From Acidimicrobiia bacterium (GTDB taxonomy: Bacteria; Actinomycetota; Acidimicrobiia; Spongiisociales; UBA5794): a DNA stretch of 64,000 nt. Made by a program: the position numbers and the translations under genes. Location: NCBI GenBank assembly GCA_030066755.1, contig JASJAX010000006.1, forward strand, positions 10,583 through 74,582, written 5' to 3'. Below the pieces are notes generated by a model. That model was not told the origin of the DNA and did not search any database. It saw only the letters and a program-made list of their open reading frames with translations. This document shows, one piece after another, positions 7,878 to 54,750 of this stretch (position 1 is its first letter; each line of letters opens with the position of its first letter).

Positions 7878-7931
7878 GTACTCAGGGTACAGCGGTTGTG
7901 GAGTCCGGTTCTCGGATTCGGCTAAGCCAGG

Positions 7932-8001
7932 CGCCAGTCGCCAGTCGCCAGTCGCCAGCGAGCGCAGCGGCGATCTGACGTCTGAGGTCTGACGTCTGAC
8001 G
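7932..8001. repeat. tandem heptamer repeats (CGCCAGT)x4 and (TCTGACG)x4 in divergent PAC2/hyhB intergenic region
   Basis: Direct reading: cgccagt cgccagt cgccagt cgccagc ... tctgacg tctgagg tctgacg tctgacg. Confidence 0.8.
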
Positions 8002-8104
8002 TCTCCCTGATCTGATCGACGGACTCCGCGGTTGCTGACGAAGGCCCCTATGTCGGGTGTGGGTGCGATCCGTACCTTGGCGGTGGAACGCAGAAGGAGC
8101 CGGT

Positions 8105-9253
8105 GTGCCAGAGACCCTTGTCCTCGACCGGTCGGGATTGGCGTCGATTCTCTCCGAATTGCGCGCTCGCGACTATCTCCTGGTCGGTCCCACGATTCAG
8201 CAGGAGGCGATCGGCTACGGCCCGATCGATTCTCTTGACGACCTTCCACAAGGCTGGACGAACGTCCAATCGCCTGGTGCGTCTCACCTCGAACGACGCG
8301 ACGACGAGCGTCTGTTCGGGTACGTGGTGGGGCCGCACTCGTGGAAGAAGTACCTGATGCCCAACGAGGTGGTGATCTGGAGAGGGGAGCGCACCGACAC
8401 GGGGTTCGAGACGGTTCCGCCGGAGCCGGCTCCGGCCTATGCGCTGTTCGGCGTCCGTCCGTGTGAAGTGGCCGCGATCGCGGTCCAGGACGCCGTCTTC
8501 ATGCCGACCGACCGTGTCTACCGCGAGCGGCGGGAAGCGGCCTTCATCGTCGCCGTGAACTGCACGCAGGCAGGAGCGAATTGCTTCTGCACCTCGATGG
8601 GAACGGGTCCCGCCGTCGGCGAGGACGCGGTCTTCGACATCGCGTTCACCGAAGTCGACCGCAACGGAACCCTCGCCTATCTCGTCGAGGCGGGCTCCGA
8701 CGACGGGGCAGCCGTGCTGCAAACCGTCGTTGGGGCCGAGCCGGCGAGCGATGCAGATCTCGCGATGCTCGAGTCGGTCCTCCAGGAGGCGGCCGCCTCG
8801 GTGACCAAGACGATGGACACCGATGGCATCCACGACCTGATGCTGGCCAATCTGCGCAATGGCTATTGGGAGGACGTCGGCGGACGCTGCCTGGCGTGCA
8901 CGAACTGCACGATGGTGTGCCCGACCTGCTTCTGCAATACGGTCGAGGACACGATGACGCTCGACGGAACGACCGCCGAGCGAACACGCAAGTGGGACTC
9001 GTGCTTCTCGATCGACTTCTCGTACATCCACGGCGGTCCGCTGCGGATGACTCCCGAAGCCCGGTATCGGCAATGGCTGACCCACAAGCTGGCCACCTGG
9101 TTCGACCAGTACGGGACGTCCGGGTGCGTCGGGTGCGGGCGATGTATCACCTGGTGTCCCGTCGGCATCGACCTGACCGCTGAAGTCGCTGCACTTCGGC
9201 GGGTGGATGCACGACAAGGCCTGTCGGTTCCCCTCCCGGAGGTGATGGCATGA
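8105..9253 (+). CDS. hyhB: [NiFe]-hydrogenase group 3b beta subunit (sulfhydrogenase HydB / AsrA-like Fe-S protein)
   Basis: Multiple Cys clusters (CEVAAI..., CTQAGANCFC, CLACTNCTMVCPTCFC, CVGCGRCITWCP). The GTG start is preceded by the SD GAAGGAG at 8093-8099. It is followed by gamma, small and large subunit genes. Confidence 0.8.
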   Translation: MPETLVLDRSGLASILSELRARDYLLVGPTIQQEAIGYGPIDSLDDLPQGWTNVQSPGASHLERRDDERLFGYVVGPHSWKKYLMPNEVVIWRGERTDTGFETVPPEPAPAYALFGVRPCEVAAIAVQDAVFMPTDRVYRERREAAFIVAVNCTQAGANCFCTSMGTGPAVGEDAVFDIAFTEVDRNGTLAYLVEAGSDDGAAVLQTVVGAEPASDADLAMLESVLQEAAASVTKTMDTDGIHDLMLANLRNGYWEDVGGRCLACTNCTMVCPTCFCNTVEDTMTLDGTTAERTRKWDSCFSIDFSYIHGGPLRMTPEARYRQWLTHKLATWFDQYGTSGCVGCGRCITWCPVGIDLTAEVAALRRVDARQGLSVPLPEVMA

Positions 9254-9714
9254 CCACGACCCTCGACCAAGTCCTGGGCGCCCAGGCGTTCTTCGCCGGT
9301 CTCGACGACGAGCACCTGGCGACGCTGGCGTCCGTTGCCGAACCGGTCAGTGTGGCGATCGGGAGGAAGGTCTTCCACGAAGGCGACGTCGCCGACGCCT
9401 GCTACCTGCTGCTCGAGGGCGATGTTGCACTCGAGATGGACATCCCCGGCCGTGGGCCGCATGTCCTCCAGACACTCCATGCGGGCGACATGCTCGGATG
9501 GTCGTGGCTCGTGTCTCCGTTCCGGTACGCATACGACGCCCAAGCTCTCACCGAGGTCAAGGCCATTCGGTTCGATGCGGTCGCGCTTCGCTCCGCAAAG
9601 GACACCGACAAGGTCTTCGGCTACGAACTGATGCAGCGTTTCGCAGAAGTGCTGGTACGGCGGATGCAAGCGGCTCGTCTCCAACTCCTGGATGTCTATG
9701 GCAACGCTCACTGA
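9250..9714 (+). CDS. cyclic nucleotide-binding domain protein
   Basis: 154 aa. The cNMP-binding fold pattern is FFAGLDDEHLATLA...GRKVFHEGDVADACYLLLEGDVAL...LHAGDMLGWSWL. The SD GGAGG lies at 9238-9242. The ATG overlaps the hyhB stop (ATGA). The 3' end overlaps the hyhG start by about 23 nt. Confidence 0.75.
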   Translation: MTTTLDQVLGAQAFFAGLDDEHLATLASVAEPVSVAIGRKVFHEGDVADACYLLLEGDVALEMDIPGRGPHVLQTLHAGDMLGWSWLVSPFRYAYDAQALTEVKAIRFDAVALRSAKDTDKVFGYELMQRFAEVLVRRMQAARLQLLDVYGNAH

Positions 9715-10546
9715 ACTCACACCAAAGCTCGCCCCGATGGAGCCGGTGCCCTTCGTGGTCCGGAGCATCCGCGACGAGCTATCAGACACCTTCACCCTCG
9801 AGCTCGATCCGCCCGATGGCGTGTTCGAGTTCCTCCCCGGCCAGTTCACGATGCTGTACGTGTTCGGTATCGGCGAGGTCCCGATCTCCGTATCCGGTGA
9901 TCCGGCGCAGCCGTCGACGCTCGTACAGACGATCCGTGGGGTCGGCGCCGTCACCTACGCCCTCCGCCAGGTGCGGCCCGGTGACGTCGTTGGCGTCCGC
10001 GGCCCGTTCGGTACCGAGTGGCCGCTGGCCGAGGCGGACGGACACGACATCGTCTTCGTTGCCGGTGGCATCGGGCTCGCTCCGCTCCGTCCGGCGATCT
10101 ACTCGGTGCTGGCCAACCGGCAGCGCTACGGGAAAGTCGTGCTCCTCTACGGCGCTCGTAGCCCGAGCGACATGCTCTTCACCCAGGAGCTCCTCGAATG
10201 GGGAGGCCGGTACGACGTCGACGTGTTGATCACTGTTGACAACGCAGACCGGCAGTGGCGCGGGGCGGTCGGGGTGGTCACGAAGCTCGTACGGCGGGCC
10301 CCGTTCGATCCGCATGACACTGTTGCGATGGTCTGCGGGCCAGAGGTGATGATGCGATTCAGCGCCCAGGAGCTCGAAGGCCGCGGGGTCCCCCAGCATC
10401 GGATCCACCTGTCGATGGAGCGCAACATGAAGTGCGGCATCGGCCTGTGCGGCCATTGTCAGTTTGGAGGTCGGTTCGTCTGTTGGCAGGGCCCGGTGTT
10501 CTCCTACGACGAACTCGCTCCGTTGCTCTTGGTGAAGGAGGTGTGA
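9692..10546 (+). CDS. hyhG: [NiFe]-hydrogenase group 3b gamma subunit (FAD/NAD(P)-binding, 2Fe-2S; HydG/AsrB-like)
   Basis: Collinear with Pyrococcus HydG. Matching segments are [34 protein letters not shown] and the C-terminal [15 protein letters not shown] cluster motif. An alternative start lies at about 9737. Confidence 0.85.
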
Positions 10547-10547
10547 G

Positions 10548-11362
10548 GTGGCACACGCCGCTGCGGTAGCAACCAAGCCCAAACTGGCCGTGTACAAGTT
10601 CGCCTCGTGCGATGGATGCCAGCTGAGTCTGCTCGACGCCGAGGATGCGCTGCTGGACGTCGCCGGCGCCGTGCACATCGCCAACTTCCTCGAGGCATCG
10701 CGCGAGGTCGTGCCGGGCCCTTACGACGTCAGCCTCGTCGAAGGCTCGATCACGACACCGCACGATGCCGAACGGATCAAGCAGGTGAGGGCGGAATCGA
10801 AGTTCCTCGTCGTCATCGGAGCGTGCGCAACGGCCGGTGGGATTCAGGCGCTGCGAAACTGGAAGGACGTCGATTCGTTCACATCGATCGTCTACGCCAA
10901 CCCGCAGTACATCGAAACCCTCCAGACGTCGACGCCGATCTCGTATCACGTCCCGGTCGACTTCGAGCTGCGCGGCTGCCCGATCAGCAAGGAACAGCTG
11001 ATCGAGGTCGTTGCGGCTTTCCTGCAAGGTCGGCGACCGAACATCCCGACCTACAGCGTCTGCGTCGAATGTAAGGCCCGGGGCACGGCCTGCGTGATGG
11101 TGGGGGCAGGGACACCCTGTCTCGGTCCGGTGACGCAGGCAGGCTGCGGAGCGCTGTGTCCCGCCTACGACCGCGGCTGCTACGGGTGCTTCGGTCCCAT
11201 GGAGAGCCCCAACACGGAGGCGTTGGAGATGTGGTGGCGGGAACTCGGCGTCTCGGACCGCGACATCGTGGATGCGTTCCGGAGCTTCAATGCCTGGGCC
11301 GAACCGTTCCGCGAGGCATCTGATCGGGTCGAAGCCCGCCTCACCGTCACGGGGGTGACCGA

Positions 11363-11366
<4 letters not shown>
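10548..11366 (+). CDS. hyhS: [NiFe]-hydrogenase small subunit (delta)
   Basis: [26 protein letters not shown] and [11 protein letters not shown] are the proximal/medial cluster Cys motifs of small subunits. The GTG start is preceded by the SD AAGGAGGTG. Confidence 0.85.
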
Positions 11367-12658
<1,292 letters not shown>

Positions 12659-12662
12659 TTGG

Positions 12663-13172
12663 GTGTGTGATGGGGAACACCGGGGTGTCGTGATCGGGAT
12701 CGGGAACCGATTCCGGAGCGACGACAGCATCGGGCTACAGGTGCTCGATGCCGTGACACCCCGGCTCCCGTCATGCGTCGATGCCCTCGAGAGCAATGGT
12801 GATGCCATCGCTCTCGTGTCGAGCTTCGAACATGCGAGCTTGGCCGTCCTCATCGACGCCGTCCGCAGCGGAGGCAAGCCGGGGACGATCTACCGATTCG
12901 ACGGGAGCACCCGTCTCCCGACGAAGTTCTTCCGTGCGGCGTCGAGCCACGTGCTCGGTCTGAGCGAAGCGTTGGAGCTTGCCCGAGCGCTCGATCGCCT
13001 CCCGCACAAGATCGCCGTGGTTGGCATCGAAGCGGGCGACGTCGCTCACGGCGAGGAACTGTCGCCGGAAGCCGCGGCCGCGTTGCCTCGTGCCGCCGAT
13101 CTCGTTGTCCGACTGATGGATTCACTTCACCCGATGGAGGTGACGACCGAAGAAGAGGTGCGACATGCATGA
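12663..13172 (+). CDS. hydrogenase maturation endopeptidase (HycI/HoxW/HybD family)
   Basis: VVIGIGNRFRSDDSIGLQV matches the GxGNxxxxDDGxG protease motif. It lies immediately downstream of the large subunit gene. Confidence 0.7.
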   Translation: MCDGEHRGVVIGIGNRFRSDDSIGLQVLDAVTPRLPSCVDALESNGDAIALVSSFEHASLAVLIDAVRSGGKPGTIYRFDGSTRLPTKFFRAASSHVLGLSEALELARALDRLPHKIAVVGIEAGDVAHGEELSPEAAAALPRAADLVVRLMDSLHPMEVTTEEEVRHA

Positions 13173-13437
13173 GCGTTCGGTAGCGACATCACTGGTTCAG
13201 CAAGCAGCGGAAATCGTCTTGCGCGCAGGTTCGGATCGTGCAGTCTCCGTTGGCGTTCGCTTCGGCGGCACCTGCGGATTGAGTGAACCTCACCTCCGTT
13301 CATCGTTCGCAGCGGCCGCTGAGGGCACCCCGATCGAGGATGCGCTCCTCGAGGTCTCGTTCTCCGAAGAGACGATCAACAGCGAGGGTGTTGACGTGAT
13401 CCTGACGCACGTGGAGCTCGCCGACCCCCCGGAGTGA
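13165..13437 (+). CDS. HypA-like N-terminal domain protein lacking zinc-finger cysteines
   Basis: Starts MHERSVATSLVQQAAEIV, which resembles the HypA MHE Ni-binding N-terminus. It is 90 aa and has no CxxC...CxxC motif. It overlaps the protease gene by 8 nt. Confidence 0.4.
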   Translation: MHERSVATSLVQQAAEIVLRAGSDRAVSVGVRFGGTCGLSEPHLRSSFAAAAEGTPIEDALLEVSFSEETINSEGVDVILTHVELADPPE

Positions 13438-13477: not shown

Positions 13478-14341
13478 ATGAACTACCGCATGCTCCTCTC
13501 AACTGCCCTCGCCGCCGTCATCGTGGTTGCCGCTTGCGGCGACACCAGTGACGATGCCTCGCCATCGTCGACCGACTCGACCAGCCCGACCACCGCGCCC
13601 TCGGGAGGAGCGACCTCGAGCGATCTCGTCGGAACCCGGTGGATCGTCGATGGACTCACGATCGGTGGCGCCGACTATTCCCTCGTCCCCGACGCCGACC
13701 CGACGATCGAGTTCTCAGCCGACCAGCCCACCATTGGAGGCACGACGGGCTGCAACAGCTACTTCGCCGAGGTCGAGTACCTCGCAGGCGGTGAGTTGCG
13801 CATCGGTGGCGTTGGACAGACCGAAATGGCCTGCTTCCCGCAGGAGGTCATGGACCAGGAAGCCCAGTTTGGGCTGGCGATCTCGCAGGTCGAGTTCTAT
13901 GAGCTCGACGGCGACCGGCTCACCCTCGCCAGCCTCGACGGATCGGTCATCATCTCAGCGGTGAACCGGGACAGCGTCGTGATGCCCGTCGAACTCGGCG
14001 GTGTCACCTGGATCGCCGATACCCGCATCGAACGAGATGCCGCTTCGACCCTCGTCGGTGGCAACGACGTCACCCTGACCTTCGACATGGCGCGAGGCAA
14101 CATCGGAGGCAACTCGGGCTGCAACCAGTTCGGCGCAACCTTTGTGATCGACGACGACCGGATTCGTGTCGCCGATCTCGTGGGTACCGAGATCGCCTGC
14201 GAGGAGCCCGTGATGGAACAGCAACGCTTCCTCTACGACGTCCTCTTGAACGCCGACACGTTCAACATCGACGACCGGCGGTTGACGATCCTCACCGCCG
14301 ACGGCCGCGGCATCAGCCTGGTGGCATCCGACACGGAATAA
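13478..14341 (+). CDS. lipoprotein with tandem META (HslJ-like) domains
   Basis: Signal peptide plus lipobox (VVAAC), a Ser/Thr-rich linker, and two repeats each containing GTRW/GVTW and GCNSY/GCNQF motifs. Confidence 0.6.
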   Translation: MNYRMLLSTALAAVIVVAACGDTSDDASPSSTDSTSPTTAPSGGATSSDLVGTRWIVDGLTIGGADYSLVPDADPTIEFSADQPTIGGTTGCNSYFAEVEYLAGGELRIGGVGQTEMACFPQEVMDQEAQFGLAISQVEFYELDGDRLTLASLDGSVIISAVNRDSVVMPVELGGVTWIADTRIERDAASTLVGGNDVTLTFDMARGNIGGNSGCNQFGATFVIDDDRIRVADLVGTEIACEEPVMEQQRFLYDVLLNADTFNIDDRRLTILTADGRGISLVASDTE

Positions 14342-14342
14342 C

Positions 14343-14377
14343 CAGTCGTCAGTCGTCAGTCGTCAGTCGTCAGTCGT
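14343..14377. repeat. tandem heptamer (CAGTCGT)x5 filling the convergent intergenic gap
   Basis: The whole 35-nt spacer between the lipoprotein stop and the flavodoxin stop is this repeat. Confidence 0.85.
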
Positions 14378-14862
14378 CAGCCCAGCTCATCCGCGATGTT
14401 CTCGGCCCAGGCCCCGATGTCGTCCCAGTCGCGGAAGTCGCCGTACGGGGCGCCGACCACCTTCACGATGGCACGCTCGGCAAAGCTCAGATCTTCCTTG
14501 ATCAGCTTGCCGTCGAACCACGTGTGACTGCGGGCCCCGGTGTCCTCCATCAGGGCGTCGAGCTGATTGAGCGCCGACTCGTTGTCATCCTCGTCGCCGA
14601 GCGGTCCGCTGCTGAAGATCCAGACCGGGAGCGTCTGCAGGTCCGCCGAGAACCGCTCGGCGAACTCGACCGCATCCTTGCGCCAGTTGCCTGCATAGAC
14701 GGCGCTTCCCAGTACGACGGCGTCGTATCCGGTCAGGTCGGTCACCTCCGCAGGATCGACGAGTTCGATCTCGAAGCTGCGGTCGATCAGTGTTTTGGCG
14801 ATGTGCTCGGCGATGCCGTACGTGGCGCCGTGCTTGCTTCCAGCGGTGACGAGAACCTTCAT
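14377..14862 (-). CDS. flavodoxin family protein
   Basis: MKVLVTAGSKHGATYGIAEHIA...VVLGSAVYAGNW... gives a flavodoxin-like fold signature. Length is 161 aa. Confidence 0.7.
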   Translation of the reverse strand: MKVLVTAGSKHGATYGIAEHIAKTLIDRSFEIELVDPAEVTDLTGYDAVVLGSAVYAGNWRKDAVEFAERFSADLQTLPVWIFSSGPLGDEDDNESALNQLDALMEDTGARSHTWFDGKLIKEDLSFAERAIVKVVGAPYGDFRDWDDIGAWAENIADELG

Positions 14863-52400: not shown

Positions 52401-53924
52401 ATGACCGATCGTCTGCGTGCCTTCTTCCCGCGACCCGTCACCGGCGACATCGTCGCCGGTGTCAGTGTGTCGCTGATCTTGATCCCCCAGGCTTTGGCCT
52501 ACGCCGACCTCGCCGGCTTGCCGCCGGTGTATGGCCTGTTCGCCGCCGCTCTCCCGCCGATCGTCGCCGCCATCTTCGCTTCGTCGCCATATCTGCAGAC
52601 CGGACCGGTGGCGATGACCGCCTTGCTCACGTTCGGGGCCCTGAGTCAGCTCGAGACTCCCGGATCCATGGAGTATGTGAAGCTCGCTGCCCTGCTGGCG
52701 TTGATCGTCGGGGTGGTGCGCGTGATCGTCGGCTCGCTTCGCGCCGGAGCGGTGGCGTACTTGATGTCACAGCCGGTCATCCAGGGGTTCACCGGCGGCG
52801 CGGCGATCCTGATCATCGCCTCGCAGCTGCCGACGGCGCTCGGTGCCGATGCTCCAGATGGCGGGGTGCTGCGCCGGGCTTGGTGGAGTGTCACGAACTT
52901 CAGTGAATGGGAGCTCGCCGCGGTTGCGATCACCCTCCTAGCGGCGTCGCTCCTGACCTTCGGCTCCAGGATCCACCCGCTGTTTCCCAGCGTGCTCGTC
53001 GCGGTTGCTGCTGCGCTCGTCTGGTCCATGATCACCGACTACTCAGGTCAGATCGTCGGCGAGGTCCCGGGTGGTCTCCCGCCGTTCTCGCTGGCGTTGC
53101 CGTGGAGCCGCTTCACCGACATCGCCGTCGCCGGTGCGGTGATCGCCCTCGTCGGATTCGCGGAACCGGCGTCGATCGCCCGGGCGTACGCGGCGCGGGA
53201 GCGGACACCATGGAGTCCCGATCGCGAGTTCCTCAGCCAGGGTGCCGCCAACCTCGCATCCGGCATCTCGGGAGGGTTTCCGATTGGTGGATCGTTCTCG
53301 CGGACGTCGGTGAATCACCTCGCCGGCGCCAAGACACGATGGAGTGGCGCCGTCACGGGACTCGTCGTATTTGCGTTCCTGCCGTTTGCCGGGATCATCG
53401 AGGACCTTCCCCGCGCCGTGCTGGCGGCCATCATCATCGTGGCGGTCGCCAAGCTGATCCGAGTGCCGGCGCTGCTCTCGTTGTGGAAGTACTCGAAGCC
53501 GCAGGCGCTGGTCGCCTACGTGACCTTCGGTGCAACATTGGTATTGGCGCCACGGATCGATCAAGCCGTGCTCGTCGGCATCGTGACGGCGATCGCAATC
53601 CACCTCTGGCGTGAACGGGTTGTCTCCGTCGAACTGGAGGTGCGTCGCGGCGGTGTGGCCCGGATCCGGCCTCAGGGTGTGTTCTGGTTCGGTTCGGCGC
53701 CCGACCTCGCAGAGGCGATGAACGAGCTGATGGGTGCGTATCCCGAGGCCGACACCATCGAGATCGACCTCGGCGGGCTCGGCCGGATCGACTACTCCAG
53801 TGCGGTGATGCTGCGGGACATGGTGAACGACGCCCGCAAGGCCGGATACGAAGTCGACGTGATCGCCGTCCCGGAGCACGCCCGCCGCATCTTGCGCGCC
53901 GTGTGGGCCGAGGAGATCAGGTAG
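52401..53924 (+). CDS. SulP family inorganic anion (sulfate) transporter with STAS domain
   Basis: Polytopic core with a C-terminal STAS-like domain. Motifs include GLPPVYGLF. Confidence 0.85.
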   Translation: MTDRLRAFFPRPVTGDIVAGVSVSLILIPQALAYADLAGLPPVYGLFAAALPPIVAAIFASSPYLQTGPVAMTALLTFGALSQLETPGSMEYVKLAALLALIVGVVRVIVGSLRAGAVAYLMSQPVIQGFTGGAAILIIASQLPTALGADAPDGGVLRRAWWSVTNFSEWELAAVAITLLAASLLTFGSRIHPLFPSVLVAVAAALVWSMITDYSGQIVGEVPGGLPPFSLALPWSRFTDIAVAGAVIALVGFAEPASIARAYAARERTPWSPDREFLSQGAANLASGISGGFPIGGSFSRTSVNHLAGAKTRWSGAVTGLVVFAFLPFAGIIEDLPRAVLAAIIIVAVAKLIRVPALLSLWKYSKPQALVAYVTFGATLVLAPRIDQAVLVGIVTAIAIHLWRERVVSVELEVRRGGVARIRPQGVFWFGSAPDLAEAMNELMGAYPEADTIEIDLGGLGRIDYSSAVMLRDMVNDARKAGYEVDVIAVPEHARRILRAVWAEEIR

Positions 53925-54750
53925 CCGCGCTCTCCCAGGCCACGGAATAGAGCGAGACCGGCTCCGGGAACCCCTTCAATCCGATCTGTCCCCGGGCCTC
54001 GAACGAAATGCCCTTGCCGATCGTGAGGTCGCGCACCGCGCTCGAGGTGAGGATCTCGCCCCCCTCAGCATGCGCACAGAGCCTGGCGGCGAGGTTGACG
54101 GCGGCGCCGAAGAGGTCGTTGCTGTTCTCGACCGGCTCGCCAACACTCAGGCCGATCTTCACGGCGAGCCTCGGATCATCCGGATCGTCGACCTCGGTGG
54201 TTCCCTCCTGGATCGACATCGAGGCCTTCACCGCTCGTTCGACCGAATTGAAGCTGGCGAAGACGCCATCGCCGGTGTGCTTGACCTCACGCCCGCTGAA
54301 CCGGCTGAGGGCATCGCGGACAACGGTGTCGTGGCGATGGAGGAGTTGCATCGCCGCCCGATCGCCACGGGTCGTGCTCACGGCCGTCGAGCCGGCGATG
54401 TCCGTGAACATGATGGCGCGCAGTGCAGTGTCCGGAACGCCCTCCACCATGACTCGATCGGTGTCGTCCATGGAGGTCGCACCCATGAAGAGATCCAACA
54501 TCGAGGGCTGCACTTCGATGACGTCGTGGGGCATGAGACCGTGGGCTGCCTTGTGGCAGGCCTTCAGCGAGTCGACATCGGGAGACTCGACGAGACAGAA
54601 CGCTTTGCCACCCCGGTCGGTCGCAACCCAGTAGCTCAGGAACTTGACCCCGTAGTCGTCCTGGATGGCCAGGTCGCGCTGATGCGCGGCTGCAACGTCT
54701 TCCGGCGTTGCGTCTCCCAACCCGGGATGGACGTCCATGTAGAGCGGCAT
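53917..54750 (-). CDS. DUF4242-domain / class III adenylate-guanylate cyclase fusion protein
   Basis: N-terminus MPLYMDVHPGLGDATPEDVAAAH...YWV is DUF4242-like. The C-terminus has a cyclase catalytic core (IMFTDIAGSTA...). Confidence 0.65.
   Translation of the reverse strand: MPLYMDVHPGLGDATPEDVAAAHQRDLAIQDDYGVKFLSYWVATDRGGKAFCLVESPDVDSLKACHKAAHGLMPHDVIEVQPSMLDLFMGATSMDDTDRVMVEGVPDTALRAIMFTDIAGSTAVSTTRGDRAAMQLLHRHDTVVRDALSRFSGREVKHTGDGVFASFNSVERAVKASMSIQEGTTEVDDPDDPRLAVKIGLSVGEPVENSNDLFGAAVNLAARLCAHAEGGEILTSSAVRDLTIGKGISFEARGQIGLKGFPEPVSLYSVAWESAAT

Follow-up and report, generated by a model that had tools for sequence, protein, structure and literature searches.

What does a cyclic-nucleotide-binding (CNB) protein do in the middle of a hydrogenase operon? 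The question is raised by a 64,000-nucleotide stretch of DNA from an Acidimicrobiia bacterium (contig JASJAX010000006.1, positions 10,583 to 74,582), which we call the window and in which positions are counted from its first nucleotide. Here a gene for a CNB-fold protein of 154 amino acids without a DNA-binding domain (9250 to 9714, forward strand; Pfam PF00027) lies between hyhB and hyhG, the genes for the beta and gamma subunits of a group 3b [NiFe]-hydrogenase. We refer to the subfamily of this protein as "GWSW". A preliminary description, made from the window's sequence alone, had presented the CNB gene as inserted into the operon and a small hypA-like gene at the operon's end as a stub. 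We favour, with moderate confidence, the reading that the CNB protein belongs to the enzyme in fixed stoichiometry, as a non-catalytic and probably dimeric subunit on the HyhB/HyhG module, and would tune or stabilize the enzyme by way of a small molecule other than classical cyclic AMP (cAMP). Few hydrogenases of soil and sediment bacteria are as widespread as those of group 3b, whose presumed role in hypoxia is to get rid of surplus reductant as H2.

The CNB gene and its ties to HyhB and HyhG

Relatives of the CNB protein were found in at least 582 species genomes, from at least 11 phyla, in a scan of one genome per species with the CNB protein as the query. The best 80 loci from that scan are the related loci discussed throughout; some counts were made over 81 loci (L002 to L082), and hyp and cyclase neighbourhoods were taken as flanks of 8 kb. 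Of these loci, 79 have the order hyhB-CNB-hyhG, and where the contig is long enough, hyhS, hyhL, and the protease gene come next. The actinobacterial part of this set contains Acidimicrobiia, Thermoleophilia (Gaiellales and Solirubrobacterales), and other Actinomycetota, and the remainder comes from the Chloroflexota, Acidobacteriota, Gemmatimonadota, Planctomycetota, Verrucomicrobiota, Bacteroidota, Ignavibacteriales, Binatia, Dormibacterota, and Proteobacteria. The stop codon of hyhB overlaps the start of the CNB gene in 85% of the 81 loci, typically by 4, 14, or 17 nucleotides, and the stop codon of the CNB gene overlaps the start of hyhG in 78%. The same B-CNB-G-S-L order occurs on annotated plasmids of Burkholderia thailandensis and Rhodococcus sp. 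DK17. In a sample of plasmid or chromid group 3b loci, the CNB gene was inside the operon in 11 of 15, the four exceptions all being from Streptomyces.

Within the window, hyhB and the CNB gene share an ATGA at 9250-9253, with GGAGGTG just upstream. The CNB stop codon, at 9712-9714, is overlapped by both candidate starts of hyhG, by 17 nucleotides if ATG 9698 is used (282 amino acids, the choice of public gene calls) and by 23 nucleotides if ATG 9692 is used (284 amino acids). The overlaps at 9250-9253 and 9692-9714 had been recorded in the preliminary description and are confirmed, with the second shortened to 17 nucleotides if translation begins at ATG 9698. Translational coupling of this kind would cause the CNB protein to be made in amounts matched to those of its neighbours.

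The family is large and uniform in size. A word-indexed search returned 187 CNB homologues, nearly all of 150-160 amino acids, with identities down to 43%, and a profile search against 1.84 billion representatives returned 902 clusters (at 50% identity) with E ≤ 1e-30. The exact CNB protein of the window is encoded on 18 public contigs, and its nearest named relative among the matches listed, from an Acidimicrobiia metagenome-assembled genome (MAG), has 61% identity. The idea that the gene is a functionless, strain-specific insertion or is decaying, with a truncated hypA pseudogene at the end of the same operon, had only first appearances behind it (a gene that looked "inserted", a HypA that was short), and it is refuted by these clusters, by the near-complete synteny of the related loci, and by the recurrence of the identical protein. 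The word "inserted" thus does not fit a gene whose position and overlaps are conserved across so many phyla; a gene unique to one strain, unconserved or decaying, is clearly not what the comparison found. Judged from the comparison of loci, the CNB gene and the short hypA (discussed below) are ancient, conserved parts of a widespread operon type.

The CNB protein is also tied to its neighbours by gene fusion, with independent natural fusions on both sides. A CNB-HyhG fusion of 468 amino acids (P0255), whose 90% cluster contains nine full-length distinct sequences from JGI and ENA data, is encoded directly downstream of hyhB, and overlapping it, on three contigs from different samples. A HyhB-CNB fusion of 542 amino acids (P0205/P0270) has two distinct members (L094:2924-5110 and L095:1739-3925). 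On both of these contigs the fusion gene is followed by a second, free CNB gene encoding 153 amino acids, so this lineage has two CNB domains per operon. Tandem proteins with two to five CNB domains of the same family also exist (P0121, P0123-P0127, and P0135). The fusions to both neighbours, taken with the CRP-like C-terminal helix described below, point to a CNB dimer located where the C-terminus of HyhB meets the N-terminus of HyhG.

The CNB protein has also changed in step with the hydrogenase subunits. Its distance matrix correlates with those of HyhB, HyhG, HyhL, and HyhS with r = 0.80, 0.75, 0.71, and 0.70, respectively, and the structural subunits correlate among themselves in the same range (r = 0.69-0.78). 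Mean pairwise identity is 53% for the CNB protein, 57% for HyhB, and 54% for HyhG. Conserved overlaps, synteny, co-evolution, and fusions together support the suggestion in the preliminary description that the CNB protein is a co-expressed regulatory or accessory component, and this is how the gene is best read.

Under the subunit reading that we favour, the cytosolic NAD(P)-linked enzyme of group 3b encoded by the operon would be a variant made of five proteins, namely a HyhS and HyhL dimer, a HyhB and HyhG pair, and the CNB protein. The CNB protein would bind in the region of the HyhB C-terminus and HyhG N-terminus, probably as a dimer held together through its long C-terminal helix. Once docked, it could act as an allosteric or stabilizing subunit, by analogy with HoxI2 on the diaphorase of the Cupriavidus necator soluble hydrogenase.

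Could the CNB protein instead be an assembly or maturation factor for the diaphorase, loading iron-sulfur clusters or flavin or holding HyhB and HyhG together, and be absent from the mature enzyme? The operon does carry dedicated maturation genes, for the protease and the short HypA, and the core enzyme exists without a CNB gene in Mycobacterium smegmatis and in archaea. Permanent fusion to HyhB and to HyhG, however, implies that the domain is present in the mature protein, and the ligand pocket is the most conserved part of the CNB protein. CNB folds are not known to act as cofactor-insertion chaperones, which also counts against such a role, and we regard it as very unlikely.

Alternatively, the CNB gene could share a transcript with the hydrogenase genes while its product acts outside the enzyme, as a free protein with a part in signalling or transcription, for example as the ligand-sensing partner of a separate DNA-binding hypoxia or redox-stress regulator. 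By sequence the protein is CRP/FNR-like, and a paper on Frankia (PMC11879354) labels the corresponding gene "a small transcriptional regulator". We inspected the neighbourhoods of stand-alone Streptomyces paralogues (L088:5980-6432, L089:5983-6429, and L083:24465-24863), which have about 36% identity to the window protein, keep the GWSW residues, and have lost R92 and D96. Their neighbours encode universal stress proteins (USPs), GAF sensor kinases, response regulators, a CBS protein, a PNPOx-family protein, and flavohaemoglobin, a setting that looks like a hypoxia/DosR-like or redox-stress cluster. The hydrogenase operons of Burkholderia and Rhodococcus likewise have USP and CBS genes at their sides. 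Free diffusion is nevertheless hard to reconcile with covalent fusion to HyhB and HyhG, and a position between subunit genes with overlapping codons, maintained in at least 11 phyla, is typical of the subunits of a complex. The protein has no helix-turn-helix or other DNA-binding domain, its chain ending after the C-terminal helix. We consider a role outside the enzyme unlikely.

Several observations weigh against the subunit reading or limit it. Some of the fusion calls come from short metagenomic contigs, and the correlation of distance matrices reflects shared phylogeny as well as any interaction. In Streptomyces sp. NBC_01340, the one inspected among the four Streptomyces exceptions, hyhB adjoins hyhG, and a CNB paralogue lies 9 kb away on the other strand; since some Streptomyces have hyhB and hyhG adjacent and the CNB gene elsewhere, the CNB subunit would be dispensable for the core enzyme. 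M. smegmatis Hyd3, the best-studied bacterial group 3b enzyme, is annotated with consecutive beta, gamma, delta, alpha, and protease genes and without a CNB gene (PMC2799521). The only solved group 3b enzymes are archaeal and have no CNB protein, and no solved structure containing a CNB subunit was found in searches of the PDB with the CNB profile, HyhL, or HyhB. The Streptomyces paralogues have no hydrogenase nearby, which means that the CNB fold can work outside a hydrogenase. Finally, the resemblance of the window protein to HoxI (encoded by hoxI from pHG1), the best functional parallel, amounts to 23% identity over 78 amino acids (pairwise E = 0.002).

The family also reaches a second type of hydrogenase. 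A member with 45% identity to the window protein is encoded in an Mvh/Hdr-type cluster of a Terriglobales MAG (DASPTQ010000090.1; L071:4573-8998), between an MvhA-like large subunit gene and a protease gene. The cluster also encodes an alpha subunit of electron transfer flavoprotein (ETF-alpha), a CCG/Fe-S protein, an HdrA-like flavoprotein, MvhD, and MvhG. The CNB family thus does not occur with HyhB and HyhG alone, but accompanies a non-3b (group 3c-like) hydrogenase as well.

Fold and nucleotide pocket of the CNB protein

The only Pfam domain in the protein is PF00027, which it matches with 48 bits (cutoff 27.5). An AlphaFold2 (AF2) model, with a predicted local distance difference test score (pLDDT) of 87, is built of a beta-roll, a short helix (residues 84-87) located where CNB domains have their phosphate-binding cassette (PBC), and, at residues 121-151, a long C-terminal helix that resembles the dimerization helix of CRP. 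The chain ends at residue 154 with nothing after this helix, and neither Pfam nor the AF2 model gave a helix-turn-helix or other DNA-binding domain. Foldseek searches with the model retrieved stand-alone CNB proteins and the effector domains of Mycobacterium tuberculosis (Mtb) CRP and GlxR, with matches to the CNB domains of CRP, GlxR, PKA, and PKG reaching E ~1e-12. The CRP-family structures align with the model over the effector domain only, with a template modelling (TM) score on the target (TMt) of about 0.5. Lacking a DNA-binding domain, the CNB protein by itself is not a CRP/FNR transcription factor.

The consensus of the canonical PBC is G-E-[LIV]-[AG]-L...P-R-[ST]-A, in which the Glu binds the 2'-OH of the ribose and the Arg binds the cyclic phosphate. 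Conservation in the GWSW family is likewise highest in this cassette, through an invariant motif, GWSWL..P, in the PBC helix. Among 246 family members, G83 is conserved in 100%, W84 in 91%, S85 in 96%, W86 in 99%, L87 in 90%, and P90 in 100%. In alignments, W84 stands opposite Glu 72 of Escherichia coli CRP and the corresponding Glu of Mtb CRP. Where the canonical Arg would be, the window protein has Y93 and 77% of the 246 members have Trp. One residue before it, the window protein has R92, which is 66% conserved in the family. By sequence, then, the pocket is non-canonical, without the cAMP-binding pattern of Glu and Arg. Classical binding of cAMP or cyclic GMP (cGMP) is unlikely to be a common property of the family, with the qualification that the window protein itself retains R92. 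A pocket so strongly conserved and yet non-canonical suggests that the CNB protein probably senses something other than the classical cyclic nucleotides; a pyridine nucleotide or other redox-related metabolite would be our leading guess.

These residues bear on the possibility that the protein is a true receptor for cAMP or cGMP, turning the hydrogenase on or off in response to a cyclase. The window does encode one class III adenylate/guanylate cyclase, its only one (53917-54750, reverse strand), as a fusion to PF14026 (SCO4226-like, formerly DUF4242), a domain whose name comes from a Streptomyces protein that binds nickel (PMC4186839). The operon's CNB protein is likewise the only one in the window; it passes the Pfam cNMP_binding threshold, has the fold of the cAMP-bound effector domains of CRP and GlxR, and keeps R92 in the PBC loop. 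Opposed to this are the alignment of the ribose-contacting Glu of CRP, PKA, and PKG with a residue that is nearly always Trp, the replacement of the canonical Arg by Tyr or Trp, and the incomplete conservation of R92. The closest solved relative, PDB entry 3mdp, has the same non-canonical type of cassette. Moreover, the cyclase gene is 40 kb from the operon on the other strand, and a search of the 8-kb flanks of the 80 related operons gave no cyclase homologue. We think a cyclic nucleotide receptor improbable. The preliminary description had named this cyclase as a possible source of cyclic nucleotide for the CNB protein, a link that finds no support because no cyclase accompanies the related operons and the cassette is non-canonical. 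A nickel-responsive cyclase would, if real, be interesting in itself.

The hydrogenase operon and the short HypA

All seven genes of the operon are on the forward strand, and the positions and identities given for their open reading frames (ORFs) in the preliminary description agree with the ORF list and with Pfam and NCBIfam. The first, hyhB (8105 to 9253), encodes the 4Fe-4S beta subunit of the diaphorase module, a HydB/ShyB/AsrA-like protein that matches Fer4_22 in Pfam (111 bits) and ShyB and HydB in NCBIfam (134 and 129 bits). Its ORF opens at 8057, but the start is likely GTG 8105, which lies behind the Shine-Dalgarno sequence GAAGGAG and gives the 382 amino acids of the public gene calls. 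The gamma subunit gene, hyhG (9698 to 10546, or from 9692), encodes a FAD/NAD(P)-binding protein with a [2Fe-2S] site (Pfam NAD_binding_1, DHODB_Fe-S_bind, and FAD_binding_6; NCBIfam PRK08345 with 212 bits, and also ShyC, AsrB, and HydG). The small (delta) subunit is encoded by hyhS (10548 to 11366; Pfam Oxidored_q6; NCBIfam HydD 172 bits, ShyD 170 bits), and the [NiFe] large (alpha) subunit by hyhL (11363 to 12658; Pfam NiFeSe_Hases). After these come genes for the endopeptidase that matures the C-terminus of the large subunit (12663 to 13172; Pfam HycI; TIGR00072 110 bits, cutoff 47) and for a short HypA of 90 amino acids that consists of the nickel-binding domain only (13165 to 13437; PF01155 32.8 bits, cutoff 28.9).

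The four-subunit architecture of a group 3b enzyme, with an AsrA/HydB-like beta subunit, an AsrB/HydG-like gamma subunit, and the small and large subunits, is complete. In the translation of hyhL the motifs that hold the Ni-Fe ligands, RICGICP and DPCISCATH, are intact. The closest PDB chains to HyhL are 9nez_D (sulfhydrogenase 1 alpha, 5e-61) and 5yxy_A (1e-59), with MvhA (1e-50) and HoxH behind them, and the sole PDB relative of HyhB is the beta subunit of Pyrococcus furiosus sulfhydrogenase 1 (9nez_B, E = 1e-34). The highest NCBIfam scores of HyhL, to ShyA (263 bits) and HydA (226 bits), do not reach the equivalog cutoffs of 700 and 880, so we regard it as a member of the group and not as an orthologue of the archaeal enzymes. 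Since HyhL is nearest to the solved group 3b alpha subunits and HyhB matches only the sulfhydrogenase beta subunit, the assignment to group 3b made in the preliminary description stands at the group level. By these sequence criteria the operon is an intact, typical operon for a cytosolic NAD(P)-coupled, sulfhydrogenase-type [NiFe]-hydrogenase, and not a local oddity; reversible H2/NAD(P)(H) activity is predicted.

The short HypA matches only positions 1-67 of the 112 in the PF01155 model, and its score to TIGR00100 (22.6) is far from the cutoff of 88.1. It has one cysteine and no CxxC motif. Close homologues are 89-94 amino acids long and 57-93% identical to it, with M1-H2-E3 and a C-terminal LTHVE.ADP invariant; the MHE is invariant in 11 homologues. 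An iterative search placed orthologues of 81-95 amino acids with no cysteine or one directly after the protease gene in about 24 of the 81 loci. The carriers include Gaiellales, Acidimicrobiia, a planctomycete, a Vicinamibacterales genome, and B. thailandensis, where RefSeq calls the protein HypA. Other related loci have an ordinary cysteine-rich HypA instead of the short form. The AF2 model (pLDDT 80) reproduces the alpha/beta nickel-domain fold of HypA, the zinc domain being replaced by a low-confidence loop of about 11 residues, and the top 14 Foldseek matches are all HypA structures, with TM scores on the query (TMq) of 0.64-0.81.

The preliminary description was right that the zinc site is absent; its word "stub" does not suit a protein of conserved length and invariant MHE that is present in several phyla, and the same features, with the identities given above, argue against a pseudogene. 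We take the short HypA to be a conserved variant made up of the nickel domain only, and predict that it binds nickel. The canonical HypA proteins (E. coli HypA and HybF and those of Helicobacter pylori and Thermococcus kodakarensis) share its MHE nickel motif and nickel-domain fold; they have two CxxC pairs in a zinc domain, the whole of which is missing here. A search of the full-text literature gave nothing relevant on a zinc-less HypA, which is not proof of novelty.

As the preliminary description had noted, the other hyp genes are not close by: hypB, hypC, hypD, hypE, and hypF are absent from the 64-kb window by tblastn with HypA-F of Burkholderia and Cupriavidus (all E > 0.1). This is the norm and not a peculiarity, a given hyp gene being found within 8 kb in only 7-16 of the 81 related loci. 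The protease and the zinc-less HypA would serve the maturation of HyhL, with genes for the other Hyp functions lying outside the window in the same genome.

In related loci the short HypA co-occurs with hypFCDE and never with hypB. Where hyp genes were present in the flanks, hypB was found in 0 of 13 loci with the short HypA, versus 7 of 10 without it, and the seven loci carrying hypB have a full-length, cysteine-rich HypA. The one-sided Fisher p-value is about 0.0005, computed over lineages that are not independent.

The region upstream of hyhB, a divergent intergenic region of 206 nucleotides shared with a PAC2-family gene, contains two tandem arrays of heptamers, GCCAGTC x4.7 (7926-7958) and TCTGACG x4.4 (7974-8004), which could be operator or phase-variable elements. 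A sigma-70 promoter scan of the operon region found none, terminator-like sites were at chance level, and the leader and operon gave no Rfam match to a regulatory RNA at E ≤ 1. Downstream of the operon are a gene for a META-domain protein with a lipoprotein-like N-terminus (13478-14341) and, on the strand opposite to it, one for a flavodoxin-family protein (14377-14862).

For this window the result is mostly clarifying. Its wider meaning depends on the CNB protein being a fifth, ligand-sensing subunit. In that case many environmental group 3b enzymes, and at least one of the Mvh type, would be allosterically regulated, and four-subunit descriptions of these enzymes would miss a component present in hundreds of species. 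The CNB ligand, once identified, would then reveal the signal that tips the balance between H2 production and H2 consumption. The zinc-less HypA, seen only where no hypB is adjacent, is a lead on variation in nickel delivery, and may mark a HypB-independent route of nickel insertion. As a tentative generalization, which we would not yet call probable, the GWSW proteins might form a distinct family of sensors for something other than cyclic nucleotides. They would dock as dimers on cytosolic group 3 hydrogenases, those of group 3b in hundreds of species and that of the Mvh/Hdr type in at least one, and within the response to hypoxia or redox stress they would gate H2 evolution or uptake, with a metabolite of redox or energy metabolism as the signal. 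Separately, and equally tentatively, the zinc-less HypA might provide these enzymes with nickel independently of HypB.

Comparison with HoxI and other known systems

The known protein most like the CNB protein in its setting is HoxI of the group 3d enzyme of C. necator (Ralstonia eutropha) H16, which likewise consists of a CNB domain only (167 amino acids), has no DNA-binding domain, and is encoded within the operon of a cytosolic group 3 [NiFe]-hydrogenase. HoxI is a dimer in HoxFUYHI2, where it is on the diaphorase side, and dissociates from HoxFU at high ionic strength (PMC3189943). It is regarded as regulatory (PMC12809855) and, according to a passage in PMC12319191 that cites Burgdorf 2005, provides an NADPH-related site. 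Like the CNB protein, which M. smegmatis Hyd3 does without, HoxI is optional, being absent from the soluble hydrogenase of Hydrogenophaga (PMC12809855).

The differences are also clear. The HoxI cassette keeps the Gly-Glu and has His at the Arg position, whereas the window family has GWSWL..P. The hoxI gene follows the protease gene (hoxFUYHW-I), and the CNB gene of the window is between the beta and gamma genes. The partner diaphorases differ too, HoxFU being Complex I-like and HyhBG being AsrAB/sulfhydrogenase-like. HoxI was not among the plasmid tblastn matches in hydrogenase loci at E ≤ 1e-3 with the CNB query. With identity so marginal and the cassette different, we treat HoxI as a functional analogue and not as an orthologue.

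The arrangement of a CNB gene between the beta and gamma genes is itself already known in the literature and routinely annotated. Besides the Frankia casuarinae gene Francci3_4499, the "small transcriptional regulator" of the group 3b cluster mentioned above, a CNB-domain protein of Rhodococcus equi (WP_013415449.1) is listed in a group 3b cluster (PMC13332983), and a CNB gene in the group 3b cluster of the alphaproteobacterial methanotroph "Methylocapsa acidophilus" 29 is labelled "HoxI" (PMC12319191). As in the window, these genes separate the two diaphorase genes or are at least part of the group 3b cluster. Each of the three reports gives the CNB gene one sentence, and its distribution, cassette, fusions, and function are not analysed there. 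The homologues on Rhodococcus plasmids have 38-41% identity to the window protein and the same flanking genes; the copy in the window comes from a lineage other than Frankia, Rhodococcus, or the methanotroph.

Among solved structures, the closest to the CNB protein is Gmet_1532 of Geobacter metallireducens (PDB 3mdp; TM 0.81, 29% identity, phmmer E = 7e-13). Its cassette, G-V-S-S-L-I-K-P-Y-H-Y, is likewise non-canonical, with neither the Glu nor the Arg. Where the window family has two Trp, Gmet_1532, a stand-alone structural-genomics protein, has Val and Ser.

The reference enzymes for the hydrogenase itself are the sulfhydrogenases (SHI) of P. furiosus and T. kodakarensis (9nez, 9nf0, and 5yxy), whose alpha, beta, gamma, and delta subunits are homologous to those of the window. 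The archaeal operons and structures have these four subunits and no CNB protein, and the archaeal HypA has its zinc domain. In 5yxy and 5yy0 HypA is docked on HyhL, and the short HypA from the window has those HypA chains among its top structural matches.

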